Notes under the pieces: generated by a model
Seen by the model: only the letters and a program-made list of their open reading frames with translations
Databases searched by the model: none
What the model was told of the DNA's origin: nothing
Translations under genes and position numbers: made by a program
Part shown: in pieces, positions 51-39,547 of the stretch
Position numbering within the stretch: position 1 is the first letter of the stretch
Layout of the letters: every line of letters starts with the position of its first letter
Source: Polaribacter sp.
GTDB taxonomy: Bacteria > Bacteroidota > Bacteroidia > Flavobacteriales > Flavobacteriaceae
DNA length: 39,547 nucleotides
Direction: 5' to 3'
NCBI GenBank assembly: GCA_047622545.1
Contig: JBLHOD010000001.1
Span: 1-39,547 of the forward strand

Positions 51-124
51 GGTTGCGTAGCTCAGCTGGATAGAGCAACTCACTTCTAATGAGTAGGTCC
101 CAGGTTCGAATCCTGGCGCGATCA
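51..124 (+). tRNA. tRNA-Arg (anticodon TCT), integration target
   Basis: Acceptor stem GGTTGCG/CGCGATC, D arm GCTCAGCTGGATAGAGC, anticodon stem ACTCA/TGAGT with TCT at 85-87, T loop GGTTCGAATCC. Confidence 0.97.
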
Positions 125-127
125 CAA
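113..127 (+). repeat. attL core (tRNA 3' end) CTGGCGCGATCACAA
   Basis: Identical 15-mer at 39421-39435; integrase gene starts about 100 bp downstream. Confidence 0.9.
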
Positions 128-184: not shown

Positions 185-234
185 ACCGCAACAAAATGAA
201 ACATTTTAAAACATTTTTGCGGAAAATTTGCGGA
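185..234. promoter_or_regulatory. Putative integrase arm-type binding sites
   Basis: TTTGCGGA direct repeats at 216-223 and 227-234 (11-bp period) plus inverted CCGCAA at 186-191, between attL and int. Confidence 0.45.
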
Positions 235-1445
235 TGAAAATCGAATTAAAACTACTTAAAGCGAAAAAAAATACAACTGAAGGTTTTCCGTTGGTATTTG
301 AATTTTCGCACCAGGGAAAAAGAAAACAAAAAACAATTGGATTTTCAAAGATAGAACATTTTATTGATGATCATAAAGCAATTTCTGCAAAGCATCCTGA
401 TTTTGAAGTTTTGCATCCAATTATTACTGAATATAAAATTCTTGCAAGAAAAATTGTTTTATCCGGAATCGATGATGTGGAAAAAGCGTATAAAATGCTT
501 TTTGAAATGAATCAATCGGAACCATCTTTTAAAAAATATTTAGACATTTTATTTGCAGAAATGGAATCGCAAGTAAAAACATTCGAAAAAAATGGCAATA
601 TTCTTTATAGAAATAAAACTGCTGGTAATTTAAAAGTGTATAAAAATGTTTGGGCGCAATTTGAAAATATAATGAATGATCTTGCGGCATCTGAAATTAA
701 TTTCGCTATTTTGACTATTTTTAAAAATAATATGATTAATAAAGGAAATTCTAAAGCAACAATTCATGGCTATTTGTCGATTCTGCGTTCGCTTTATAAT
801 CAATCTAGTGTAAAGTATGGTTTTGAAAATTTAAAACCTTTTGCTGGTGTTTTTTCTGGTTTAAAAGTAAAATCTTATAATTCTAAAAAAAAGCATATTG
901 CGAAAGAAGATATTCAGAAATTAGAATCCTGGACTGGTCCAAAACTAAAAACCGAAGCGGTTGATTTTTTTCTGCTTCAATTCTACTTTGCTGGTGCTGA
1001 TTTAATTGATATTTACTATTTAGAAAATGCGCAATTGGTAAAAAATAGGCTATATTTTGAACGTGGAAAAACTTCTACAGGTAAATTAATTGATATTACA
1101 ATTCATCCAAAAGCGGCCGCAATTTTGAAAAAATACAAAAATAGCTCTAAATATGTTTTCGAATTTCGAAAAGACATTAAAGGTTATGAAACATTTAGAT
1201 CAAGATATGCAAAAAATTTAAGCAAAGTGCAGGAGCAGCTCGAGATTAATGTAATGCCAATTGGTGGAAATTTGGGTGTAAAAGTAGCACGACATACATT
1301 TGCAACCATTGGTAAAAACTTAATGATTGAAGCTGATATTCTACGCGAATTAATGGGCCACGAACGTGATGAAGTAGATAATTATTATAAAGATAAGTTT
1401 CCGCAAAAGGTTCGTGATGCCGCGCTTTTTGAAATTATTGGATAG
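228..1445 (+). CDS. Phage tyrosine integrase (Bacteroidota type); likely start ATG 234
   Basis: C-terminal ARHTFAT ... LMGH ... NYY catalytic motifs, N-terminal arm-binding-like beta region, central SAM-like region (ATIHGYLSILRSLYN); adjacent to attL. Confidence 0.93.
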   Translation: MRMKIELKLLKAKKNTTEGFPLVFEFSHQGKRKQKTIGFSKIEHFIDDHKAISAKHPDFEVLHPIITEYKILARKIVLSGIDDVEKAYKMLFEMNQSEPSFKKYLDILFAEMESQVKTFEKNGNILYRNKTAGNLKVYKNVWAQFENIMNDLAASEINFAILTIFKNNMINKGNSKATIHGYLSILRSLYNQSSVKYGFENLKPFAGVFSGLKVKSYNSKKKHIAKEDIQKLESWTGPKLKTEAVDFFLLQFYFAGADLIDIYYLENAQLVKNRLYFERGKTSTGKLIDITIHPKAAAILKKYKNSSKYVFEFRKDIKGYETFRSRYAKNLSKVQEQLEINVMPIGGNLGVKVARHTFATIGKNLMIEADILRELMGHERDEVDNYYKDKFPQKVRDAALFEIIG

Positions 1446-4926: not shown

Positions 4927-5758
4927 AATATATGCAAATTCTAATAAAACGGTTTTAATTGCTTCTTTTCCAAATAGATCATATGGAGCTTTAAAAAATA
5001 GAGCAACACTTTTAGGATTAAAAAAAGCTATTGGATTTTCGGGAAAAAAGAGTTGGAAAGAAGAAGAAAAAACAGAATTCAAGAAAATATTTGCTACTGT
5101 TTCTAATCCAGAATTAGCTATAAAATTCGAATGTACGATTAATTCTGTAACACATTTATCTAGCAAATTAGGTTTAAAAAAATCGATTGAATTTAAAAAA
5201 CAAATGGTTTCGAAAAACTTTTTAGAAGCAGGAAAAAAAACACGATTCAATCCTGGTGATGTTCCACATTCGAAAGGAAGAAAACGCGAAGAATGGATGA
5301 GTAAAGAAGGAGTTCTTAAAATGAACAAAACGCAATTTAAAAAAGGATCTGTTCCGCATAATCATAAAGAATTAGGAAATGAACGCGTTACAAAGGATGG
5401 ATATATTGAAATTAAAGTAAATGATTTTCATGGAGAAAAATCAAAGAAAAATTATCAATTAAAGCAACGAATTGTTTGGGAACAACATAATGGTCCAATT
5501 CCTAAAAAAATGAATGTAGCGTTTAAAGAATCAGCTTCAAAAACTGAATTTACAGTTGATGATTTGTATTTAGAATCTAATATAGAAAATATGAATCGAA
5601 ATGCAATGTGTGATGATTCAATAGTAAAAAGGTTTTTAGGAATTACAGCACAAAATCAGGTTGAGTTTATAAAAGATAAACTTCCTGAAATTATTGAACT
5701 AAAAAGAAATCATATAAAATTAACTAAACAAATAAAAGATCATGTTAAATCAAATTAA
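4880..5758 (+). CDS. HNH-endonuclease-related protein with N-terminal helical repeats; nuclease motif appears degenerate
   Basis: W..EE repeats, TRFNPG/TQFKKG motifs, ERVTKDGYIEIK, RIVWEQHNGPIP; the expected catalytic His/Asn residues are not evident. Confidence 0.7.
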   Translation: MKADAWKKEELNLLHKIYANSNKTVLIASFPNRSYGALKNRATLLGLKKAIGFSGKKSWKEEEKTEFKKIFATVSNPELAIKFECTINSVTHLSSKLGLKKSIEFKKQMVSKNFLEAGKKTRFNPGDVPHSKGRKREEWMSKEGVLKMNKTQFKKGSVPHNHKELGNERVTKDGYIEIKVNDFHGEKSKKNYQLKQRIVWEQHNGPIPKKMNVAFKESASKTEFTVDDLYLESNIENMNRNAMCDDSIVKRFLGITAQNQVEFIKDKLPEIIELKRNHIKLTKQIKDHVKSN

Positions 5759-6170
5759 AGAAACATTAGAAGGTAAAGTTTTCATCTATCAAGAAGCAGC
5801 GCATTTGCCAAAAAGAGAATTAGTATGTGAAAGCGTTGAAAGTAAAGGTGATAAAATAATTATTTCAACAAATGCAAGAACATTTGCTATTTATCCATTT
5901 GATGCTGAAGATTTTTTAAGTAAGTGTAAAGTTTTGGAAAAATCATCGCACGAAGTAGTGATTCATAAGCCATCGCAAAAAGATGTATATCAAGTGGCAG
6001 AATACTGTGAAGATGTTTCTATATCATTAAAATCTATGTTCGATAAGATTGTTTCGGGCAAAGCTTCTGATAAAGAGATTCAAGGCTCCAAAGCAGCTAT
6101 ATCTGTTGCAGGAAAGATTATTGATATAGAAAAGATTAAGCTAGGTTATTTAATCTTAAATCATAAGTAA
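5742..6170 (+). CDS. Hypothetical phage protein
   Basis: 142-aa ORF coupled to both neighbours. Confidence 0.7.
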   Translation: MLNQIKETLEGKVFIYQEAAHLPKRELVCESVESKGDKIIISTNARTFAIYPFDAEDFLSKCKVLEKSSHEVVIHKPSQKDVYQVAEYCEDVSISLKSMFDKIVSGKASDKEIQGSKAAISVAGKIIDIEKIKLGYLILNHK

Positions 6171-6171
6171 A

Positions 6172-6912
6172 ATGATATTTCAGTTCGATAGTAAAATAGC
6201 AGAAGATTATGGCATAAACGAAGCCGTTTTTGTACATAATATATTCTTCTGGATAAATCATAACAAAGCCAATAATAAGCATTGCTATGAGGATAAATAT
6301 TGGACTTACAATACAAAGATGGCATACGTAAAATTGTTTCCTTTTTGGACCTATGAGCAAGTAAAAAAGATAATAAGAAATCTAGTAGAAAAAGATGTTT
6401 TATTAACCGCTAATTTCAACGAAAACAGCTGGGATAAAACATTGTGGTACACCTTAACAGATGAAGTTCTTTTTTATTACGAAAGTATGCTTAACCCTAG
6501 TAAAAATGCATTGGTGCAAAAACAACAATCGAGTGTTGCAAAAACAACAGTCGATAGTGGAAATAACAACAATCGAATGTTGCAAAAGCAACTTTCATAT
6601 ATAGGAACAGATAATAAAACACATATAATAAAACCAGATAGTGAAAATGCACTCGCTTTTTTTAAAGATAATTTTCCTTCGAGATATGAAAAGTTTTTAA
6701 TGGAATATAAATCAAAGATAAAAGACTTTGCAAAATTCGAAAAACTGATAGAATTGAAAATGGAAGAAGAAAGTACACCATACGAACAAAAACCAATAAT
6801 TGCTAGAATAGAACGATTTGCAATTAACTTCATTGAAAACGATACGAAAGTCATTAGAATGAATCATCAACAACCAGAGCAAAAACAAGCCTACCAAGAC
6901 CTTATATTTTAA
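6172..6912 (+). CDS. Phage replication initiator (replisome organiser)
   Basis: N-terminal wHTH-type YGINEAVF..FWI..YWTYNT..LFPFW; internal iterons; directly upstream of DnaB. Confidence 0.8.
   Translation: MIFQFDSKIAEDYGINEAVFVHNIFFWINHNKANNKHCYEDKYWTYNTKMAYVKLFPFWTYEQVKKIIRNLVEKDVLLTANFNENSWDKTLWYTLTDEVLFYYESMLNPSKNALVQKQQSSVAKTTVDSGNNNNRMLQKQLSYIGTDNKTHIIKPDSENALAFFKDNFPSRYEKFLMEYKSKIKDFAKFEKLIELKMEEESTPYEQKPIIARIERFAINFIENDTKVIRMNHQQPEQKQAYQDLIF
6515..6592 (+). repeat. Four ~22-bp iterons inside the initiator gene (putative origin of prophage A)
   Basis: TGCAAAAACAACAATCG.. at 6515, TGCAAAAACAACAGTCG at 6537, TGGAAATAACAACAATCG at 6558, TGCAAAAGCAAC at 6581. Confidence 0.75.
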
Positions 6913-8829: not shown

Positions 8830-9306
8830 ATGAGTAAAGCAAATTTAAAAGTTATCAAAGGTGATGGGGAAGAAAAAAAAGTAAATTCAAATCTTTATGA
8901 GATTTTGAAAAAGCTTCCGGCTCCAATTGTAAAAATGAAATTAACGGTGGACCAAAAATATTGGTACAACTATTTTGGTACTCAATTAATCGAATCCGAA
9001 AAACTAACAAAACCAGATTTAATTCATCTTCATAGATTATCAACTTCTGTAGATTATTACATTCAAGCAGAAAATGAAATTCGTAAAAAAGGATTTCATG
9101 GTGGATTAATTCAAACCTTCAAAGGTGGAGCAACAAACGTTTCTGGATACGTTACAATTCGCGAAAAAATGCTAAAAGATATTGATGAATTATCTAAACA
9201 TTTTGGCTTCAGTTTCAAAGATAGATCAAAGCTTCAAGAAACATCAAATACTAATCCAGGACAAACTTCATTATTTGATGAATTCTTAAAAGCTAAACAT
9301 GGATAA
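8830..9306 (+). CDS. terS: Terminase small subunit, P27 family
   Basis: Follows HNH; C-terminal LSKHFGFSFKDRSKL matches the P27-type 'FG.TP..R..L' pattern. Confidence 0.8.
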   Translation: MSKANLKVIKGDGEEKKVNSNLYEILKKLPAPIVKMKLTVDQKYWYNYFGTQLIESEKLTKPDLIHLHRLSTSVDYYIQAENEIRKKGFHGGLIQTFKGGATNVSGYVTIREKMLKDIDELSKHFGFSFKDRSKLQETSNTNPGQTSLFDEFLKAKHG

Positions 9307-9308
9307 TT

Positions 9309-9374
9309 ATGAAACTAACAAAAATATTTTTTCTAACATTTTTTTTATCATTTTCTGTAATGGCTTTTGGATAA
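9309..9374 (+). pseudogene. 21-aa signal-peptide-like ORF ending at the first cassette core site
   Basis: MKLTKIFFLTFFLSFSVMAFG* starts 2 nt after the terS stop; its stop TAA is part of GGATAAC. Confidence 0.35.
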
Positions 9375-9396
9375 CGTTCCCACGATAGGGGCTTTT

Positions 9397-9596
9397 GGAT
9401 AACAGCGGAAAAGAGCTTGAAGTAGTTGCTGAATTAATAACTAAACAAAATAAACAAAAACAAATGATTAAGATAGATTATAAAGAAAGAGCAGAAGATT
9501 TAGCTAATGACAACATTAAGTTAATGGACAAAAACTCTAGTCTAAACTCTGAAAATGAAAAACTTAAAATGCAATTACTACAAGCTAATGTTGTAG
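9397..9596. repeat. attC-like hairpin A (long loop containing an ATG)
   Basis: GGATAAC 9397-9403; arms AGCTTGAAGTAGTTGC / GCAATTACTACAAGCT; GTTGTAG 9590-9596. Confidence 0.7.
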
Positions 9597-9706
9597 GGCA
9601 AAGCGAACAGTTAAAAAAGTTTTGGGAATATTTCGATAAAGAAAGTATTGCTATTAACTGCAATGATAAAGAACGTGACCAAGTGATAAAAGACTTTTTT
9701 AATTGA
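9464..9706 (+). CDS. 80-aa protein starting inside hairpin A and ending at hairpin B
   Basis: ATG 9464 after an A-rich leader (ORF track starts at TTG 9395); crosses the core as ..ANVVGQSEQL..; TGA 9704-9706 abuts CTACAAC. Confidence 0.65.
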   Translation: MIKIDYKERAEDLANDNIKLMDKNSSLNSENEKLKMQLLQANVVGQSEQLKKFWEYFDKESIAINCNDKERDQVIKDFFN

Positions 9707-9842
9707 CTACAACGGTTCTCGGCTTTGTCGTCGTTGTGGCGATTTAAGACCAAACTTAACAAATAACAACTAATTTTTAAATTAAAAACTATGAATACAA
9801 ATAAAGACCAAGTGCCACAATGCGACAAAACCGCTGTTGGCA
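9707..9842. repeat. attC-like hairpin B
   Basis: CTACAAC 9707-9713; arms CTTTGTCGTCGTTGTGGC / GCCACAATGCGACAAAA; GTTGGCA 9836-9842. Confidence 0.8.
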
Positions 9843-9846
9843 GTAG

Positions 9847-10314
9847 TTATTTATCATCTATCAAAACGAATAAAGTTTTTGAAGAAAAAGCAATTATTAT
9901 TTCATATTTGAGATACCATGATCTAAATGTTCCATTCTCTTCATCTCTGTAAGCATTTAAGTCATTTTGGTCAAATTCTTTTTGATATACAAAATCTTCT
10001 CCCAAAACAGAATAAAATAAATTAATTAAATCTCTCACATCTTTTTCATCAGCATCATTTTTAGATAAAAAAATTGACCTTTTACCATTCGCTTTTTCGG
10101 ATAAACTTATATATTCAAAAGGCTTTTCACCTTCATTTAGGTTTAAATCGGAAACTTTAATAACATTCTTTAATTCATCATCAATAGTTACTTCACCAAC
10201 TTCCATTTCCTCATGATTATAATCATAGGGGTTAACATTAAGTTCTGTTAAAATACTATCTAATTTTGAAGAATTATTGTTATTATCACTTTTTAAAAAA
10301 TCAAAAAATCCCAT
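9847..10314 (-). CDS. Cassette gene: acidic hypothetical protein
   Basis: 155-aa ORF with MGFFDFLK start; stop 11 bp from the GTT core. Confidence 0.8.
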   Translation of the reverse strand: MGFFDFLKSDNNNNSSKLDSILTELNVNPYDYNHEEMEVGEVTIDDELKNVIKVSDLNLNEGEKPFEYISLSEKANGKRSIFLSKNDADEKDVRDLINLFYSVLGEDFVYQKEFDQNDLNAYRDEENGTFRSWYLKYEIIIAFSSKTLFVLIDDK

Positions 10315-10363
10315 ATTATATTTTATTATTTAGTTTGTTTTAGACGATTTTCTTTATAATTAC

Positions 10364-10492
10364 TGCTTACGTTGTTGTGTAAGGAAAGTTGCGTGTTTGC
10401 GAGGATTTTCCGAAGGAAAATCAGAAGCTAGCAAACACGCAACTAACTTAGGTTTAGCTAAAACTAGCAATTTTTTTTACACGGTGTTGGCT
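10364..10492. repeat. attC-like hairpin C with nested internal hairpins
   Basis: TGCTTAC (variant core); arms GTGTAAGGAAAGTTGC / GCAATTTTTTTTACAC; GTTGGCT 10486-10492. Confidence 0.78.
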
Positions 10493-10499
10493 GTAGTTT

Positions 10500-10940
10500 T
10501 TATAATTTAAATTTTGGTTTACTTTCAATTCTTTTGATTATTTCTTTAGTTTCTTTTTTTGAATTATACCAAGCTATCCCAAAACAAATAGCCAAAATGA
10601 GAGTAGTTATTGTAAATATTCCATTAAAGAAAAGGTTCCAAGAAGAATTAAACCCTTGAATACTACTCCCTTCAGCTATTGTATTCAGTAATAAAGGCAA
10701 GAAAAGAGCAACAGTGGCAATTGTAAGTTCTTTCCATAAATTATCACTTCCTCTTTTTATTGTATTAAATTCATGTTCATTTAGTGAATAAAAAGTTGAA
10801 TGTCCATCAAAATGCATTTCAGAAGTGGCTTTGGCTTTATTAATTTCTTCAATAGGTAAAGCTTGCGAGTTTTCTTCTTGCCCTTCCGATATTTGACTAT
10901 TTATATCGCTAGGGTTATTAGATTTCGTTTCCATCTGCAT
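10500..10940 (-). CDS. Cassette gene: two-TM membrane protein
   Basis: Two hydrophobic helices; overlaps the upstream gene. Confidence 0.8.
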   Translation of the reverse strand: MQMETKSNNPSDINSQISEGQEENSQALPIEEINKAKATSEMHFDGHSTFYSLNEHEFNTIKRGSDNLWKELTIATVALFLPLLLNTIAEGSSIQGFNSSWNLFFNGIFTITTLILAICFGIAWYNSKKETKEIIKRIESKPKFKL

Positions 10941-11295
10941 CTACTTTTTTACCTAATAACCATGTATATTCAAAAATTACACCTTTATCATTATTAATAC
11001 CAAACACTCTGTAATTAAAAAAAAGGTTTCTACCTTCCAACCATCCAACTCTAATTGGATTTACATTTCCTGTTCCTAACGAATTATTAAAATTCACGAA
11101 ATTTAGACCAATACCGACTTTCTCAAGTTTGTAAGGTTCTAACCTTGTCTCTTTATTTTCTATATCAGCTGTAAATTTAAATTCAGCTAAAAATTGAAAT
11201 TTTGAACCAAGAGAAATTTCAATATTTTCTTTATTTGGGTTTATTAAAGAACCTTTCTCATAAACATCAAGTTCTCCTATTTTAGTTTTTATCAT
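10918..11295 (-). CDS. Cassette gene: small beta-rich protein (DUF6864-like)
   Basis: Alternating beta pattern with NFNNSLGTG..P..VG motif; family call from memory. Confidence 0.6.
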   Translation of the reverse strand: MIKTKIGELDVYEKGSLINPNKENIEISLGSKFQFLAEFKFTADIENKETRLEPYKLEKVGIGLNFVNFNNSLGTGNVNPIRVGWLEGRNLFFNYRVFGINNDKGVIFEYTWLLGKKVDADGNEI

Positions 11296-11336
11296 TGTCT
11301 TGAATTACTTTTATTTTCTCGTGTTGTTTAAATTAC

Positions 11337-11461
11337 AGCCAACGTTATGCCACTTAGTAAGGTTGTGGACTTTTGAAAACGAGTACTTTCGGCTGGAAGT
11401 AAACGTTATTAAAAAAAGGCAATTCCACTACACCCAAAATCTCGATAAATGGCGGTTATGC
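11337..11461. repeat. attC-like hairpin D
   Basis: AGCCAAC 11337-11343; imperfect arms CCACTTAGTAAGGTTGTGG / CCAAAATCTCGATAAATGG; GTTATGC 11455-11461 contains the stop codon of the DUF4435-like gene. Confidence 0.7.
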
Positions 11462-12421
11462 GAAGTTTTCTTGGGGCAAAGATTTTAAATATTTTATTAA
11501 ACTTTCACAAGTTATTGCATTATTAGTAAGTTGAGAAATTGATGTGGAATATTCAAAACGCAATGGAGAAGAATATTTTTTAGGAAAAACGGAATTTTTT
11601 CTTTTGCCAATTTCATCTTGAAATCTATTTAGAAATGAAATTAAAAACTTTAATTCAAATTTACCTCTAAATGTTTTAGACTTATTAACAGATTTGAATA
11701 TTTCCAGTTTTTTATCAAAATTTAAGTCTGTTATTTTGGGTGATTCTGAAAATAAAGTTTCGATATTTTCTTTACTTTTAAGTTCTTCAGGAAATAAAAT
11801 TGTTATTAAATCATTCTTAACAATCTTTTCAAAAATATCACAATTAAAATATCTCTTTAATGTGTCATCAATGTTTAACCTTGTATTCGAATTATTTAGT
11901 TTACGAAAATCATTTTGGCAACTTAACCAAGCATTAAAAAATATTATATTTGAATGGAAAACCTCTTTACAATTAACATACAGATCAATGGCTTGATTGA
12001 AAACAGGACAACTTTTAGGAATATTAAATTCATTTATTAAAATATTTTCAAAAGCTTCATCAATAGTGTAAAAATTTTCTATACTATAAAATGGGGTGAC
12101 ATAAATTTTACCATCTAAATTATTTTCTTCAAAGTCTTTATCTACAAAATACATAGTTGAGGAGTTCGCATATATTACATGATTATTCATTAATTGATGT
12201 AATTTTATTAAATTTCCTTTCCCATTGCAATTATAGTTGAATATCTCATGTTGATGGTTGTAAGATTTAATCCTAAATGAATAATATGATCTATCTTCTT
12301 TACCTTCGTAAAAACAATAGAGATTCTTTTTGTTTTTATTAAAATCTAAGACAAATTCAGTGTAAGCAACTAATTCTGATTCAAGTTCCTTTTTTGCAAT
12401 TTCAATTATATTACTTTCCAT
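11456..12421 (-). CDS. DUF4435-like TOPRIM nuclease (PARIS AriB-like)
   Basis: TOPRIM motifs FYEGKED, GKGNL, FVDKDF, YSIENF, RGKF; 2 bp downstream of an ABC ATPase. Confidence 0.8.
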   Translation of the reverse strand: MESNIIEIAKKELESELVAYTEFVLDFNKNKKNLYCFYEGKEDRSYYSFRIKSYNHQHEIFNYNCNGKGNLIKLHQLMNNHVIYANSSTMYFVDKDFEENNLDGKIYVTPFYSIENFYTIDEAFENILINEFNIPKSCPVFNQAIDLYVNCKEVFHSNIIFFNAWLSCQNDFRKLNNSNTRLNIDDTLKRYFNCDIFEKIVKNDLITILFPEELKSKENIETLFSESPKITDLNFDKKLEIFKSVNKSKTFRGKFELKFLISFLNRFQDEIGKRKNSVFPKKYSSPLRFEYSTSISQLTNNAITCESLIKYLKSLPQENFA

Positions 12422-12423
12422 TT

Positions 12424-13815
12424 TTAATCTATAAATACATTCATACCTATTGCAAAATTTTCTAATTCATTACTAAAAATAAATGGTGAATGAGTTACTG
12501 CTAATAAAAATTTACATTTATCTGATTCCATAACATGAGGCAGTAATTGCTTTTGCCACTTTATTGAAAGTGAAAGTTCAGGTTCATCGAAAAAAATCAT
12601 TAAATCACTAAGGTCTTCAAGATATATTTTAGAAAAGAGTGAAATTATTTGTTTTTCTCCTGATGATAACTGATTAAGTTCAACCTTTTCCTCAGTTTGG
12701 CTATTGTATATATTTAAGGTTACTGAACTTTCATCAAAAAACATTTTTTTACCGACTAAATATTGATTGGTGACTTTTTCAAAATCTTTAATAGAATTAT
12801 CCAATTCTCTTTGACGTAAATAAATATCTTCAAGTTTTGTTAAAAAATATGCAAGTTCAGGTTTAGTTAATAATTCTTTTGAGTCCAAAAGCATTAAAAT
12901 ATTTTCCCTATCAGCTTGCGATAAATTGTTTTTAACACGATTTAAAATAATTTCAATATTATTTCTATTTATATTTAAAATTTCATCTTTAGACAATTTT
13001 GGAAAACCCTCTTGTAATTGGTGTAACATTTCACCAGTTACTTTTGCAAAACCTTTAATTGAACTGTCGTTAATTTTAGAAATAATTTTTCTAATTCTTT
13101 CTTCAACATCCTCCATTCCAAATTGAATTAATGTTTCATCTTCTAGATCTTCTGTTTCTTCTCTTTCATCTTCATCGTCCCACAGCATATTATTCATTTC
13201 GTCATTATGTATTCTTCGTAATTTACCTAAATTATGTAATTCCTCTTCAACTCTTCTGTATGTTGGGAAGTAAATAATATTAGTATTGAATTCTATTTCT
13301 AGAAAACTCACTAATTTTTCTAAACTAGTAAAATCTGGTTGCTTAGAAATTAGGTCTATTAATTCAACTATTAATCCAATAGGAGGATTATTTAATTCTA
13401 CAGCTAACTTATTTTTTCGAACATATTCGTAAATTATTCTATGCTTATCTATATTTTCTTCACTTCTATTTGAAATAAATGAATTTAAGTCTTCGATATT
13501 TAAAATTTTGGTGATTTCAGATTTTAAATTTTTATATCTTAAATTTCTTTTATTATTTAAACTTTCTAAATAACTGTTAAGTTGTAATTTCGTAAAACTA
13601 AATTGGTTATTATCAATAGTTAAGGAAATACTATCAAAGTTTATTTTTAGTAATTTTTTCCACTTTTTGGTAAGAGTAAAGTATAATGAATTAAGTATAG
13701 ATGTTTTACCTAAACCGTTTTCACCCATTAAGATTAATACATTATTATCAAAATGTAAATCAACGTTTTGATATCCAAATAGTTTTTTTATTTTAAAATT
13801 TTGTAAGTTATTCAT
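12424..13815 (-). CDS. AAA_15/AAA_21 ABC-type ATPase (PARIS AriA-like)
   Basis: Walker A GENGLGKT, YFPTYR, signature LSSGEKQ, Walker B FFDEPELSL, H-loop VTHSPF. Confidence 0.9.
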   Translation of the reverse strand: MNNLQNFKIKKLFGYQNVDLHFDNNVLILMGENGLGKTSILNSLYFTLTKKWKKLLKINFDSISLTIDNNQFSFTKLQLNSYLESLNNKRNLRYKNLKSEITKILNIEDLNSFISNRSEENIDKHRIIYEYVRKNKLAVELNNPPIGLIVELIDLISKQPDFTSLEKLVSFLEIEFNTNIIYFPTYRRVEEELHNLGKLRRIHNDEMNNMLWDDEDEREETEDLEDETLIQFGMEDVEERIRKIISKINDSSIKGFAKVTGEMLHQLQEGFPKLSKDEILNINRNNIEIILNRVKNNLSQADRENILMLLDSKELLTKPELAYFLTKLEDIYLRQRELDNSIKDFEKVTNQYLVGKKMFFDESSVTLNIYNSQTEEKVELNQLSSGEKQIISLFSKIYLEDLSDLMIFFDEPELSLSIKWQKQLLPHVMESDKCKFLLAVTHSPFIFSNELENFAIGMNVFID

Positions 13816-13870
13816 TTTTGTTTTTCTAAATTTTGTTTAATAAATATGAGTTCTTATGAGTAAAAATGTA

Positions 13871-14115
13871 GCATAACGTCAGTATGTAAAAAATTAAAAT
13901 CAAACTCTTGAGAATCCCATATTTGAGATTGTTCTTTGGAGTTCTTTGAATACTTTCTAGATTTGAAGAGATTTTTTCACAGCCTGACGTTTTTCAGCTT
14001 GCGAAAGTTGCGTTTTACAGCACCAAGCCTTTACAAATATACACTAACTTTTAAATTTAAAAATATATTTATAGACACTTCCTAAACTAGCCACTTTTAC
14101 AAACAGCTGTTGTGT
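13871..14115. repeat. attC-like hairpin E with two alternative left cores
   Basis: GCATAAC 13871-13877 and GCCTGAC 13982-13988; arm GCTTGCGAAAGTTGC vs GCCACTTTTACAAAC; GTTGTGT 14109-14115. Confidence 0.65.
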
Positions 14116-14124
14116 GTTCGGTTT

Positions 14125-14493
14125 TTATTCTTTTTCTGATAGTTTTATATTAATATAACATAAAAAAGCTCCAATTATTCTCAAAACAGAGTTCCAAATA
14201 CCAACATTTTCTCTGTTAGTTGAGAACAAGTAATAATCACCAACAATAACGATTAATACCCAAATAATTAAAAATATATTCAATGTTTGGATTTTAAATT
14301 TTGGTGCAATAAGATAGACAGGAACAATAAAAAACAATCCTTGTAGTAAAAATAAAGAACCGTTCAATAAAAAAGAATTTGCAAATGTATTACTAGACAA
14401 AAAAAGTTGCACAAGTTGTTGATATAAATATGGAAATATTATTGAGCATATTATTGATACTGGTAAAACTAAAATCCAACGAAGTATATTCAT
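14125..14493 (-). CDS. Cassette gene: four-TM membrane protein
   Basis: Four hydrophobic segments; stop 16 bp from the GTT core. Confidence 0.8.
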   Translation of the reverse strand: MNILRWILVLPVSIICSIIFPYLYQQLVQLFLSSNTFANSFLLNGSLFLLQGLFFIVPVYLIAPKFKIQTLNIFLIIWVLIVIVGDYYLFSTNRENVGIWNSVLRIIGAFLCYINIKLSEKE

Positions 14494-14643
14494 AAAAGTG
14501 GTTTAATATCGAATACAATATTAAAATAAAAAAAGTTAAGAATTTTACGGTTTCCCGTAAAGCATTTAAAAATTAATTATGAGGTTTAATATTCCTCCTT
14601 AAAAATTATGTCTATAAATAAAAAACAAAATTTTAATTCATAG

Positions 14644-14699
14644 TGGTTTTTCAGAAGGAAAAACCAAGCCTAAACTGTTTTTGCTAACCGTTGTTGGCA
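14644..14699. repeat. Degenerate attC-like site F (right half only recognisable)
   Basis: Internal hairpin TGGTTTTTC-AGAAG-GAAAAACCA similar to that in site C; GTTGGCA 14693-14699. Confidence 0.5.
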
Positions 14700-14716
14700 T
14701 AAGATTATTATTTTAT

Positions 14717-15292
14717 TTAATTATTGCTATTTATTTCATATATAGAATTAAAATCATTTATGAAATTATTTTTTTCGAAATATAAATATTTGTTTTCCAG
14801 TTTGTTATATTCTAATTTATTATCTATGTCTTTTAAAAAACCATTAAGGTATTTAGTTGTTAAATTTGTTTTATAATATTTAGTATCAACAGCTATTATG
14901 TTCTTTTCTAAATTATAATCAAAATTCATACCTTCAGAATCATAATACTCTGCTAAAATGAATAATGAATATCCATTTTTTAAACAATAGGATTGAATAA
15001 TTTCGAGTGGATAACAAACTTTACTTTTACATTTTGAACCCCAAATATATACAATTGATTTTTCGTTTTTGAGTAAACATTTTTTTAAAGTTAAACCATC
15101 TGTTATAAAAATAAAATTTTCAATTTTTGAATATTTACCACAGATTGTATCAGTATTTTTTGTTTTGATAAATAAGTTTGGACTTTCTTTCTTTGTCTTG
15201 TTATAATAACTATAAAGGCCTTGAAAACCTCCATTAAATGAACAAGAAGTAATAATTAAACAAATAACAGTAAGATAAAATATTTTTTTCAT
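14717..15292 (-). CDS. Cassette gene: lipoprotein, possibly thioredoxin-like fold
   Basis: Lipobox-like IITSC; IVYIWGSKCKSKVC resembles a W..C..C redoxin motif. Confidence 0.7.
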   Translation of the reverse strand: MKKIFYLTVICLIITSCSFNGGFQGLYSYYNKTKKESPNLFIKTKNTDTICGKYSKIENFIFITDGLTLKKCLLKNEKSIVYIWGSKCKSKVCYPLEIIQSYCLKNGYSLFILAEYYDSEGMNFDYNLEKNIIAVDTKYYKTNLTTKYLNGFLKDIDNKLEYNKLENKYLYFEKNNFINDFNSIYEINSNN

Positions 15293-15305
15293 ATTAATTT
15301 AGTTT

Positions 15306-15340
15306 AAAACAAGGTTGAAGTAAATAATTCAACCTTGTTT
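15306..15340. terminator. Strong hairpin between the two lipoprotein genes
   Basis: AAAACAAGGTTGAA ... TTCAACCTTGTTTT inverted repeat. Confidence 0.65.
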
Positions 15341-15350
15341 TGTTGTTTTT

Positions 15351-15872
15351 TTAATTTTCTAAAGCATTAATAATGTAACCACCAAAGTTACCTACACTTG
15401 AGTCAAATTGATATTCACCTTTAAGTAAAGTTGTCTTAACACTACTTATGTTATTATCAATATATAATGTTTGACGATTATTAATTGCATTTAAATGTTC
15501 GCTTTTTGTAGGGTCTAATTTAATTGTTAAATATCCAGTTTTTGTTTCATCATATATAATGATTTCACCACCGTTTACAACTCTATTTTGATCATAACAG
15601 TCAACAACCACGCCATGTTCAGTACAGCAAAACCAGCAATCAACATAATTACATAATCCAAAGCCACTACAGCTTTTACTTGTTCTACCCCAGCTATCCC
15701 AATCTGCATAATGAAAATGAAATTCTTTTTCCTTTTTTAGATAATTTTCATTAATATTATTTTCAGTTGAATCTACTGAATTAATTATGGTTTCTTCATT
15801 TTCAGAACATGATGTAAATATTAAAAAAATGATAAAACACATTAAACTTATTGTTGAAAATATTTTTTTCAT
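15351..15872 (-). CDS. Cassette gene: Cys-rich lipoprotein
   Basis: Lipobox-like IFTSC; WGRTSKSCSGFGLC..CWFCC. Confidence 0.75.
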   Translation of the reverse strand: MKKIFSTISLMCFIIFLIFTSCSENEETIINSVDSTENNINENYLKKEKEFHFHYADWDSWGRTSKSCSGFGLCNYVDCWFCCTEHGVVVDCYDQNRVVNGGEIIIYDETKTGYLTIKLDPTKSEHLNAINNRQTLYIDNNISSVKTTLLKGEYQFDSSVGNFGGYIINALEN

Positions 15873-16069
15873 AATTGATATTTTACCCTATTATTAATTC
15901 GGTCTACCGAAAGGACGACAACTTTAGGCACAATTTTGTTTTAAGTTAATTTGTACCGCCCTGTTGGTTTACTAACTTTTACTTATTACTAACTTTTCGT
16001 TTTTCCTTGAATGAATTCTATTGTATCTTCAAGCGATTCGTCCTTTTAGCAATGTTTTTCAAAATTTTC

Positions 16070-16200
16070 TGCCAACGATTAGTATATGAAAAGTAGATAA
16101 TTCCGAAGCACAAAACTTTCGGTTAAGTACAAACTTTGATACGAGCTAAAAGTATTTAATTCATTACTAATTCGCCTATTTTTTATATACACTGTTGTAG
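16070..16200. repeat. attC-like hairpin G
   Basis: TGCCAAC 16070-16076; arms GTATATGAAAAGTAG / CTATTTTTTATATAC; GTTGTAG 16194-16200. Confidence 0.8.
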
Positions 16201-16267
16201 CACGTTTTGTATTACAATCCGTAATACAAATTTTATTTTTTCAAAGCAAACTTTAATTTCGAAAATA

Positions 16268-16525
16268 TTAGAAATTAAGGCCTAATTCTTTTAATTTAAT
16301 TTTTATTTCTTCTGTTTGATTTTTTATTTTAAACATCTCGTTTCTGTCAGTAGAAGTATCAATATAAACAAAAGCGTCAGAATCATTTATTAATTCTATT
16401 ATTGTATAAAGTTGCGAATATACAAACCCATAACAATCTTTAAAATATTGCTTGTTTTCAATTTCGTTTAGTTGATATTCTTTTTCTCCGTCAAAGAATA
16501 TTATATTTAATATTGGTTCTGTCAT
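16268..16525 (-). CDS. Cassette gene: small acidic hypothetical protein
   Basis: 85-aa ORF between site G and half-site H. Confidence 0.7.
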   Translation of the reverse strand: MTEPILNIIFFDGEKEYQLNEIENKQYFKDCYGFVYSQLYTIIELINDSDAFVYIDTSTDRNEMFKIKNQTEEIKIKLKELGLNF

Positions 16526-16539
16526 TTTTTTTTAAAATT

Positions 16540-16580
16540 CCTATTTCGCCATACCAAACCGTAGTTGTGTGTTCGGCTTT
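16540..16580. repeat. Half attC-like site H
   Basis: GTTGTGTGTTCGG at 16564-16576 is identical to 14109-14121; no left arm seen. Confidence 0.5.
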
Positions 16581-17080
16581 TATAATTTGAATAAACTTTT
16601 TTAACATTTTTTAAGTAAAAAGTATTTTTATAAACCAATACTTATAACACCTTTTTTTTATGATAAATTAATTATTATATTTTCAAAATTAGAATTTTTT
16701 TTTCAAAAAACTAATAATATACGGAAGAAAGATTACGGTTTAACCGTATTTTTTATTAGCTCATTTACACAATAATAATAACCATAATAAAGCTACTTTT
16801 ATAATTTAAATTAAACGCAATTTTGTTTTATAAGTTGGCAGTGTTTTATTCAAACATTTACCACGATAATTCAACAAAGATATAATTTATCATTTGTTGC
16901 ATTAAGTTATTGAATGCTCACGCGTTTTTCTCAATTCATTGCTAACTCAAATATATCCGAAAATATAAAAAACAAATTAAGTTATTTTATTAATATTCAG
17001 TACATTATTAGAGTATAATTAAACGAACAAAATTCGTTTTTATTTTTGATACTTAGATCAAATATAAACTTTTAGTATTT

Positions 17081-18784
17081 CTAAATAACTGTAGGATCAC
17101 TCATGTTAAATTCTCCTTCAGAAGTTACAAACTTGGTCCAGGTTGGTCGCATTACTAAATATTTGAATGCATCTGAATAATTGGTAGAATACATCGGTCG
17201 TAAATGCATGGCTAATTTTTCAGAAGATTTGTCTTTATATATTTTTGACGCTCCAGTTCTATCTCTTCTATTGTCAATTTTGGTCAACTCAATAGAACTT
17301 TTTACACATTTACAATTGAATTTGTCAATTTTTAATTTTGGTAAACCTTTCACAGTTTCGCCCATCATTCCTTTAACAAAATTATACTCATCTTCTTGCA
17401 AAATTGTTCCTTGGCCAACGCTCATTAATTCAACATACCAACCGGTAGAGTTTCCAAATTCATCATACTCAATTGCTTTTTTTAGCGCAGAAGCCCAATC
17501 TCGTTTGGTATTTGCGTTTTGATTTCCCGAACGGTCATAATACAATTTTAGTTTTTTTAATTTATGATATTTATAGTATTCTCTATATTGTTTTCCCAAT
17601 TGTATTTCATTCTCTGGAGCAAGCGTATGAAATTCTTTTAATAAATATAAATATTCTCCTCTAGGTTGTGCTGTAACCATACTGCACATTCCTCCAAAAT
17701 CTACACCCGCTTCTAATTCTTGATTATGATCAATATACCTTAAAGCTAGTGAGCTTTCTTCAATAGTATCTAAAATTCCAAATTTATCATAATAAGAATT
17801 TATGGTTCCATCTTCAAAAAAATGATGCTCTCCAAGATTGCCATAAAACTTTTCACCTTTTGTTAAATTGACTTTAAAGGACAAAATAGCACTTTTAAAT
17901 TCTTCGATTCCAAGAGCTTTTAAACTGTCTTTAAAAAATCCTTGCGTTAAAACATCCACATTTACAAAAGAAGAAACAACATAAAAAAATGTCAAATCTT
18001 TACGAGCTCTTATCCAACGCTCTCGCCATCTACCTAAATTTTTTCTTAATTGCTCAACCTTAATTTTATCATTGTCTTTTTGAGCATTATACAATTCAAT
18101 GTTAATTTCATTTAACACCAGGGCACAATTCAAAGCCAATTTCACCTGGTCTAAGTCCATGTCTTTTTCATGCTGCATTATCCAATCTTCATCACCATCT
18201 AAAATATTAGGCATATCGGTGGTAAATGTTCGACCTCTATAAAAAACAGAATGGCCAAACTGTGCATATTCTCCACGAATTGCTGGATTTAGCTTTTTAA
18301 GTTTTTGAAATTTTAACAAACGAGCTTCATCCCCAAAAATATGTTGAAATGAATCTCCAGCCAAACCTGAAGGTTGATCTAAACTTCCAAGACTAAACAT
18401 ACATCCATTGTAAATAGATATGGTATGTTTGAAACTTTCGACTGGCTTGTAGTTTAATTTAAAATGATTTGGAGGTCTTTTGTCTGTTACATAATGAATT
18501 CCTTCTTTCCATCCTTCACGGTTCCAACCCTCAATAAGTGTTGGAACTACATTACGCATTGCATTTACATACGTATCAGAAACAAATACACTACGACTGC
18601 GTGGCATATCTTCTACAACATTAATAGATCGCTTTGCAATTATTTCTGATGTTTTGGCAGTTGCACGACCAGCAATTCCGTAAAAATCTTTTGGCTGAAT
18701 TAAATCTACTAAAATCGTAAACCAATTAGCATAAATAGATTCTATATTTATGTCATCAGCCTTTACGTGGGTTTTCCGACTCAT
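17081..18784 (-). CDS. terL: Terminase large subunit of prophage B
   Basis: Walker A-like AGRATAKT, Walker B IFGDEA, RNase H-like nuclease motifs AGVDFG, YYDRSG, YSDAFKY. Confidence 0.88.
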   Translation of the reverse strand: MSRKTHVKADDINIESIYANWFTILVDLIQPKDFYGIAGRATAKTSEIIAKRSINVVEDMPRSRSVFVSDTYVNAMRNVVPTLIEGWNREGWKEGIHYVTDKRPPNHFKLNYKPVESFKHTISIYNGCMFSLGSLDQPSGLAGDSFQHIFGDEARLLKFQKLKKLNPAIRGEYAQFGHSVFYRGRTFTTDMPNILDGDEDWIMQHEKDMDLDQVKLALNCALVLNEINIELYNAQKDNDKIKVEQLRKNLGRWRERWIRARKDLTFFYVVSSFVNVDVLTQGFFKDSLKALGIEEFKSAILSFKVNLTKGEKFYGNLGEHHFFEDGTINSYYDKFGILDTIEESSLALRYIDHNQELEAGVDFGGMCSMVTAQPRGEYLYLLKEFHTLAPENEIQLGKQYREYYKYHKLKKLKLYYDRSGNQNANTKRDWASALKKAIEYDEFGNSTGWYVELMSVGQGTILQEDEYNFVKGMMGETVKGLPKLKIDKFNCKCVKSSIELTKIDNRRDRTGASKIYKDKSSEKLAMHLRPMYSTNYSDAFKYLVMRPTWTKFVTSEGEFNMSDPTVI

Positions 18785-39372: not shown

Positions 39373-39420
39373 TAACACGAACTAACTATAATTAACTGTT
39401 AATCAGTGTGCAATTGATTT

Positions 39421-39435
39421 CTGGCGCGATCACAA
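39421..39435 (+). repeat. attR core CTGGCGCGATCACAA
   Basis: Exact copy of 113-127. Confidence 0.9.
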
Positions 39436-39464
39436 AAAAAGCCTTGCATTTGCAAGGTTTTTTT
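39434..39464 (+). terminator. Probable original tRNA terminator displaced by integration
   Basis: AAAAAAAGCCTTGC-attt-GCAAGGTTTTTTT. Confidence 0.75.
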
Positions 39465-39547
39465 GTTTATGTTGTGGTTCAGTTTTATTTCTTTTATTTT
39501 AAAGAATATGTTTTTTTAGTAAAAATTTTGTTACAAGTAATTTTTAA

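Follow-up and report, generated by a model that had tools for sequence, protein, structure and literature searches.

Polaribacter sp. (GenBank assembly GCA_047622545.1; 1.57 Mb, 82% complete, 31% G + C) carries on contig JBLHOD010000001.1 an array of cassette-like units within a prophage. The window analysed here is this entire contig of 39.5 kb (39,547 nucleotides). It begins at a tRNA-Arg gene, which is followed by the gene of a tyrosine integrase; DnaB, an HNH protein, and a small terminase subunit (Pfam) are also encoded, and the end of the tRNA gene is repeated at 108–165 and 39416–39473, and the window is therefore a prophage. Between the small terminase gene and an oppositely oriented gene for a protein of 567 aa there are six units (U1–U6) with hairpins (h) between them (Table 1). 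A sequence-only reading of the window had proposed that the two ends of each unit are complementary to each other rather than to the end across the neighboring hairpin, and that the units are discrete and mobile.

The pairing of each unit with itself was upheld by the permutation check that had been suggested for it. All 12 end motifs listed at the time occur once in the window and exactly where they had been placed, and of the 720 ways to combine six starts with six ends the cognate arrangement ranks first whether 12, 15, or 20 bases outside the GTT are considered. At positions 4–10 it is the single best arrangement (33 matches; mean 19.3), the units U1–U6 contributing 4, 6, 7, 5, 6, and 5 matches of 7, respectively; at positions 8–14, beyond the 7-bp core, its score is reached by 6 of the 720 pairings. 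In the four middle units the 5–7 matches of 7 are followed by a G/A mismatch at position 11 and then by 3 matches of 3; the outer two, U1 (0/3 beyond) and U6, are weak. Complementarity over the 10–15 bp reported earlier is thus there, not as a plain stem but in two parts, of 10 and 3 bp, on either side of a mismatch that is fixed at position 11. The six pairs are real too, but they had been selected from nine half-sites, those at 14109, 16194, and 16564 having been omitted; these three find best partners with only 4, 3, and 4 matches of 7. It should be noted that for the start of U2 the end at 11343 is as good a partner as the unit's own end, with 6 matches each. The end pairs are not assembly joins, since each of the six units lies without differences within one unbroken contig of the likely source run. 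The contigs of this run break at h2, at h3, and at 13934–14075, the depth being even (50–65); breaks at hairpins could affect the order of the units, not their ends.

Table 1. Features of the window, with the units and hairpins of the array.
Feature	Position	Strand	Evidence or remark
tRNA-Arg	51–125		contig begins there
Prophage tyrosine integrase	228–1445	+	Pfam Phage_int_SAM_5, weak Phage_integrase
Terminase small subunit, last conserved left-arm gene	8830–9306	+	PF05119, phrog_83
U1, phage-type, weakly paired ends	9590–9713	+	4/7 at positions 4–10
h1, phage-type hairpin	9711–9838	-	fold; Flavobacterium phage matches
U2 cassette, 155-aa protein of unknown function	9836–10370	-	6/7 + 3/3 pairing
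h2, chromosomal-type site, 3/6 spacer	10368–10488	-	resembles host C18 sites
U3 cassette, two genes, perfect ends	10486–11343	-	7/7 + 3/3 pairing; Pfam
h3 hairpin	11341–11457	-	fold; similar pieces in three sequencing runs
U4 cassette, PARIS-like pair	11455–13877	-	Pfam, PADLOC; 5/7 at positions 4–10
Decayed stretch: hairpin remnants, half-site 14109, 122-aa membrane-like gene (14125–14493)	13878–14692	-	
U5 cassette, two lipoprotein-like genes (173 + 191 aa)	14693–16076	-	6/7 + 3/3 pairing
h6, chromosomal-type site	16074–16196	-	called in genome-wide scan; many family matches
Decayed stretch: half-sites 16194 + 16564, 85-aa gene (16268–16525)	16194–16833	-	
U6, 113 bp, no open reading frame of 70 aa, truncated hairpin	16834–16946	-	5/7 pairing
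567-aa gene, last gene of right arm	17081–18784	-	three viral relatives at 62–74%

The same pairing is found in cassettes of related genomes. Sites were called there from their inner arms only, with the ends unused, by a pattern drawn from the host array on contig C18 (see below) and its relatives; this caller replaced a generic hairpin caller judged too insensitive. In 43 loci (622 kb) 292 sites were called, as compared to 9 in shuffled DNA, and 201 distinct cassettes were delimited. A cassette extends from GTT to the following GTT and includes the gene, AAC, and then a hairpin of about 124 nt; its first 14 bases are, with the mismatch at position 11, complementary to its own last 14 before the hairpin. 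At positions 4–10 the 201 cassettes show 6.14 cognate matches of 7 versus 2.70 ± 0.10 upon shuffling, a value reached by none of 10000 shuffles; perfect ends are found in 131 cassettes, versus 9 of 201 when the end across the neighboring hairpin is taken instead. Replication in 40 further loci with 151 new cassettes gave 5.81 versus 2.54 matches and 86 versus 3 perfect ends. The loci had been chosen for matches to the recombinase or to the hairpins and related genomes are not independent; p-values are therefore overstated, and it is the size of the effect that counts. Among the 201 starts there are 102 different 7-mers. Position 11 is A in 200 of the 201 starts and G in 173 of the 201 reversed ends, so that on the top strand A faces C and never pairs, while the bottom strand would have a G-T at this place; positions 12–14 pair again (0.86, 0.89, and 0.74). 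The spacer is 3/6 in 225 and 3/5 in 39 of the 292 sites, left spacers of only 1–3 being permitted by the caller, and in 367 of the 382 cassettes that have an open reading frame the gene has the same orientation as the sites.

That the match extends past the 7-bp core had been considered special, which by itself it is not: in class 1 integrons, represented by nine canonical cassettes of five regions, the ends likewise pair to about position 11 (0.67–0.89 at positions 5–11 versus 0.26–0.60 for non-cognate ends), the pairing dropping at position 12. This control is small, two of the nine cassettes spanning a missed site and one site being called in a Shewanella phage. Since class 1 cassettes pair past seven bases, cognate ends are an integron trait; as such they are expected for integron-type cassettes and are not the surprise. 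What sets the flavobacterial system apart is the mismatch fixed at position 11, the 3 further bp behind it, and a spacer of 3/6 in place of the canonical 5/6.

The claim that the units are discrete and mobile is borne out by duplicates with exact boundaries, by reshuffling to the first place behind an attI-like site, and by co-varying ends. The unit itself had to be redrawn, because it had been delimited without a hairpin and recent copies carry the downstream one. Among 245 cassettes there are 57 pairs at least 90% identical, of which all 57 have kept the downstream hairpin and 21 the upstream one. In the listed alignments of copies, identity begins at one GTT and stops at the GTT that follows the hairpin, and the same cassette is found both directly behind the attI-like site and inside arrays, which begin at a half-site behind the recombinase gene. 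Judged by these boundaries, near-identical copies are best understood as the result of excision and re-insertion in the manner of integrons.

Of 13 pairs of homologous cassettes from different genomes, 11 have a different downstream hairpin (scores of 0.51–0.73; background median 0.64), even at body identities of 98, 95, and 94%; the exceptions are one 100% pair that keeps the hairpin and one 75% pair that scores 0.85. In alignments across the switch, from which one of twelve (L049/L122) was excluded because it did not anchor, identity was judged by eye to drop almost at the AAC, a few bases from it at most, in five and 5–17 or more bases later in three. The GNAT cassette found in the host array, for example, has a different hairpin in each of four genomes, its ends being constant. 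Where the start has changed at positions 4–10 between genomes, a matching change of the end is found in four of five pairs; one start and one end have changed alone. Earlier work had found cassette genes to be unrelated to their attC (reported in PMC3053210), and gene conversion among Vibrio sites has been proposed (PMC1382264), so that hairpin turnover has precedents.

Two other elements were encountered in such arrays. One of 2.4 kb (L075/L076, G282) has at least five insertions, each precisely where a cassette ends in AAC; its open reading frames, both of which look interrupted, read in translation as recombinase-like and IS91-type transposase-like. The other (L050, G412) is a GTT-to-GTT unit of 550 bp that ends in an attI-like half-site and has no hairpin; six copies are present in one array, one of them in first position.

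The enzyme acting on the cassettes is probably not IntI. On host contig C18 (G000:C18:5227-10910, L011) a recombinase gene (5227–6423; 398 aa) is followed on the same strand by an attI-like half-site and four cassettes with cognate ends and h2-like hairpins, which encode a TIR protein (PADLOC PDC-S35, 323 bits), an unknown protein, a beta-lactamase-family hydrolase, and a GNAT protein. In the alignment the C18 recombinase has the catalytic residues, and it and five relatives lack the IntI-specific insertion (I2), which is present in IntI1 and in a Shewanella IntI. It is closest to archaeal XerA (NF040815, 214.8 bits at a cut-off of 220; best structure 5HXY) and stays with 201.7 bits below the cut-off (265) of TIGR02249, above which no IntI was found in the host genome (82% complete). 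A separate Xer gene is located on C12. Homologues of the C18 recombinase were present in 24 of 61 genomes searched, and 15 of 20 regions behind them contain co-oriented sites, the other five being four contig edges and one broken gene. The attI-like half-site ending in GTT lies behind the recombinase on C18 and in its relatives; the window has none. The integrase of the prophage was also considered as cassette enzyme and rejected, since it fits the tRNA-Arg att repeat and has no significant likeness to the C18 recombinase. An additional chromosomal-type site outside the C18 array is located on host contig C9 near 509.

We consider it probable that the six units are cassettes of an integron-like system of Flavobacteriaceae, which lie at the junction of two phage arms without an enzyme of their own and are likely moved by the XerA-like recombinase of the host via a predicted single-stranded hairpin. 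From the observed anatomy, statistics, boundaries, reshuffling, co-variation, and enzyme linkage we infer the folding, the strand, the circle, the enzyme, and the route of hairpin exchange as follows. The recombinase would attach to the bottom strand in its folded form, both to the inner arm and to the outer stem, and would cut at AAC as in attC. Excision would yield a circle of gene plus hairpin, in which, as is reasonable to assume from the complementary ends, these would close the outer stem of 10 bp, a bottom-strand G-T wobble, and 3 bp; within the array the start of the neighbor would be a poorer partner. The circle would then re-enter at the attI-like site, and selection at this step would keep the ends complementary. 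The hairpin would be swapped either by gene conversion or by a crossover, less frequent than the first, at the other AAC. The bottom strand folded lower in all three cognate junctions tried. A wider proposal, which we advance only tentatively, is that this is a second integron lineage, widespread in Flavobacteriaceae and their phages, in which an I2-less XerA-like enzyme acts on folded strands and the gene with its 14-bp ends is what lasts, the hairpin being exchangeable at the inner AAC.

The same cassettes and recombinase would also be compatible with an Xer-type exchange between double strands, in which the ends are palindromic binding arms and no hairpin is formed. Arms of 10–14 bp suit Xer-type binding, and the recombinase is indeed nearest to archaeal XerA and without the IntI insertion. 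We nevertheless think this unlikely: 102 7-mers among 201 starts and ends that co-vary point to pairing rather than to recognition of a sequence, only one of the two strands allows the fixed mismatch to pair (as G-T), and the arms are about 124 nt apart unless the strand is folded. As to a canonical integron remnant, a cluster of attC sites lacking an integron-integrase (CALIN) that is served by an IntI absent from the assembly, integrons likewise have AAC/GTT cores, units from GTT to GTT, and cognate ends, CALINs have been published from phages (PMC9892861), and the genome is only 82% complete. What makes it quite improbable is that no match exceeds the TIGR02249 cut-off, that 225 of 292 spacers are 3/6 as opposed to the canonical 5/6, that the arrays sit behind insertion-less recombinases, and that attC1 of phage P12002L, the sole site of this build with a published test, was inactive with IntI1 (PMC9892861).

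Small non-autonomous transposons, with the ends as terminal inverted repeats and the hairpins as unrelated repeats of the repetitive extragenic palindrome type, would account for the inverted ends and for gene modules that keep these ends and change their hairpin, as in the 11 of 13 pairs from different genomes. This is, however, very hard to reconcile with the 57 of 57 recent copies that include the hairpin, with ends that vary among cassettes unlike the repeats of one transposase, with the lack of target duplications by eye at the boundaries, and with genes co-oriented with sites in 367 of 382 cases. That the matches were picked by chance in AT-rich DNA, or are an assembly artefact, might be suspected because six pairs were taken from nine half-sites, two of them being weak, and because the contigs of the source run break at h2, h3, and 13934–14075; blind replication in 352 cassettes has already refuted this for the pairing, each unit lies in one contig at an even depth of 50–65, and we attach hardly any credence to it.

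Several points speak against movement by the host enzyme on a folded strand. The array of the window is partly decayed, with three orphan half-sites and one altered core. Folding of the circle junctions in silico, which had been recommended as a check, ranked the cognate junction at the top in two units, U3 and U4; in U2 it did not. The 57 near-identical pairs reduce to 11 clusters in four genomes, and genomes that are related are not independent samples. No close homologue of U2 was found in cassettes of 200 genomes of the genus, and in 400 genomes of the family there was one 33% match, outside a cassette. The C18 enzyme, assumed here to act on the prophage array, lies on another contig and has no IntI insertion, by which IntI recognizes folded sites, so that single-strand recombination needs another reader. 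No circle, excision product, or enzyme activity has been observed. The absence of circle joints from assembled contigs among those listed (15 of 20) weighs neither way.

The system shares with integrons (IntI/attI/attC), especially the sedentary chromosomal ones, the tyrosine recombinase adjoining an attI-like half-site and a co-oriented array, the AAC/GTT cores, the inner inverted arms, the GTT-to-GTT unit with a downstream hairpin and cognate ends, the reshuffling to first position, and defence genes as cargo. It differs in that the C18-type recombinase lacks the IntI insertion of about 40 residues and has about 95 extra N-terminal residues, that its gene points towards the array rather than away from it, that the spacers are 3/6 instead of 5/6 (PMC5027507) and the outer stem 10 + 3 bp with a fixed G-T, and that the flavobacterial hairpins are mostly replaced between genomes. 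Top-strand recombination at R'' does occur in integrons (PMC5027507). The system thus works like an integron but is not one by the IntI insertion or by the spacer. With XerA and XerC/D the C18 enzyme shares the domain layout, the catalytic residues, and the absence of the insertion; unlike them it precedes a cassette array and ends in an SPLD motif common to the two IntI aligned.

In its layout, with several sites and no integrase nearby, the array might pass for a CALIN, its sites not being canonical attC. Closest are the phage CALINs of Qi et al. (2023; PMC9892861), in which genes of an integrase-less flavobacterial phage are bounded by hairpins; attC1 of P12002L (L111, near 30050) shares the asymmetric build of h1. 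In the available text these sites are treated as ordinary attC for IntI and no other recombinase is named (PMC9892861). Of the six sites tested there attC1 is the one that failed with IntI1, and attC2 worked (PMC9892861); attC2 could not be placed in the flavobacterial site family. Other 3/6 sites are also present in Polaribacter phage P12002L; there were six calls, of which four look convincing by eye.

Full-text searches aimed at this flavobacterial system, in a collection without most subscription papers, brought up none that describes it. IntegronFinder 2.0 reported almost no complete integrons in Bacteroidetes (PMC9024848). The I2 insertion is regarded as indispensable for integrons to work (PMC8138268); how it originated has been called a chicken-and-egg problem, and a reliable model for the genesis of cassettes is said to be lacking (PMC4792948). 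With an I2-less platform that has cognate, co-varying ends and exchangeable hairpins, the origin of I2 and the genesis of cassettes become testable with one enzyme and one site. If true, a second lineage would be a living intermediate for the origin of the integron-integrase and a direct handle on how genes acquire an attC. The arrays are moreover an unscreened store of defence genes, for example the PARIS-like pair in the window and the TIR cassette that is first in the host array.

U4 encodes an AAA ATPase (12424–13815) and a DUF4435 protein (11456–12421). For the PARIS system (phage anti-restriction-induced) adjacent genes with AAA_15 (32 bits) or AAA_21 (27 bits) and with DUF4435 (27 bits) have been used as thresholds (PMC9122126). 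With scores of 45.9 (AAA_15), 40.9 (AAA_21), and 115.3 bits (DUF4435), and PADLOC calls of AriA and AriB, U4 is a predicted PARIS by this published definition, and it may protect the lysogen from other phages. Its homologue in G360 is also a cassette, in which both ends have changed in concert, and a 97% copy is present in another sequencing run; a search of genomes, metagenomes, and viruses for close copies of U2 and U4 gave only distant matches. As in the PARIS and prophage defence hotspots (PMC9122126), an AAA ATPase and a DUF4435 protein occupy a variable spot beside packaging genes; unlike there, the predicted system is packed as a cassette with recombination sites.

As to the other units, the open reading frame of U1 (9395–9706) begins upstream, crosses the GTT, and is antisense to the other units. 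In phage-type hairpins phage genes begin in the loop and run the opposite way; in lillamy9-1, for example, a methyltransferase gene begins within an h1-like hairpin, and h1 itself matches 23 records of Flavobacterium phages with 83.5% identity over 131 nt. This hairpin adjoins U2, although U2 is oriented like chromosomal cassettes, a combination that fits hairpin exchange at the AAC 9836–9838, at this one locus; the same crossover may have fused the two phage arms at h1. The U2 core at 10370 reads GTA instead of GTT, and its protein has four homologues at 65–83%. U3 encodes a DUF6864 protein (125 aa) and a membrane-like protein (146 aa); for the U5 genes family and profile searches gave nothing beyond weak matches. 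In the sample of 400 family genomes the best matches are sites of the h2 and h6 kind, and single arrays have more than 40 sites. The exact h2 pattern is present in two viral contigs; a search of plasmids with h2 gave no match, nor did an Rfam search of 9300–17100. A short palindromic motif, possibly a promoter or operator, occurs at 14545–14560 and 16735–16750, upstream of the two genes lacking cognate cassette starts; a similar palindrome follows the recombinase in phage locus L105.

The hairpins and proteins of the window resemble Flavobacterium phages and Bacteroidota records. Its viral relatives cover one arm each (six the left, three the right): the 567-aa gene is found in none of five left-arm records and DnaB in none of three right-arm records, and in four left-arm relatives the small terminase gene is followed by a gene of their own for 570–577 aa, for which the window has no counterpart. 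On these grounds the prophage appears to be a head-to-head fusion of two phage arms that are unrelated, with the array where they meet, and is possibly defective. The 567-aa protein gave no match in family and profile searches; we read it as terminase-like by its motifs. A relative of the prophage with an empty site was not found, relatives sharing only one arm. Between 9306 and 17081 the large terminase and portal-like genes of the left arm are missing, as are the next genes of the right arm. One left-arm relative (L105:8843-9643) has between its small and large terminase genes an insertion-less recombinase of 266 aa with the same domain build and a hairpin upstream; homologues are present in 23 phage records, 22 of them of Polaribacter and Cellulophaga. 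Finally, three repeats with a period of 22 bp at 6518–6592, inside a replication-initiator-like gene, are possible iterons.

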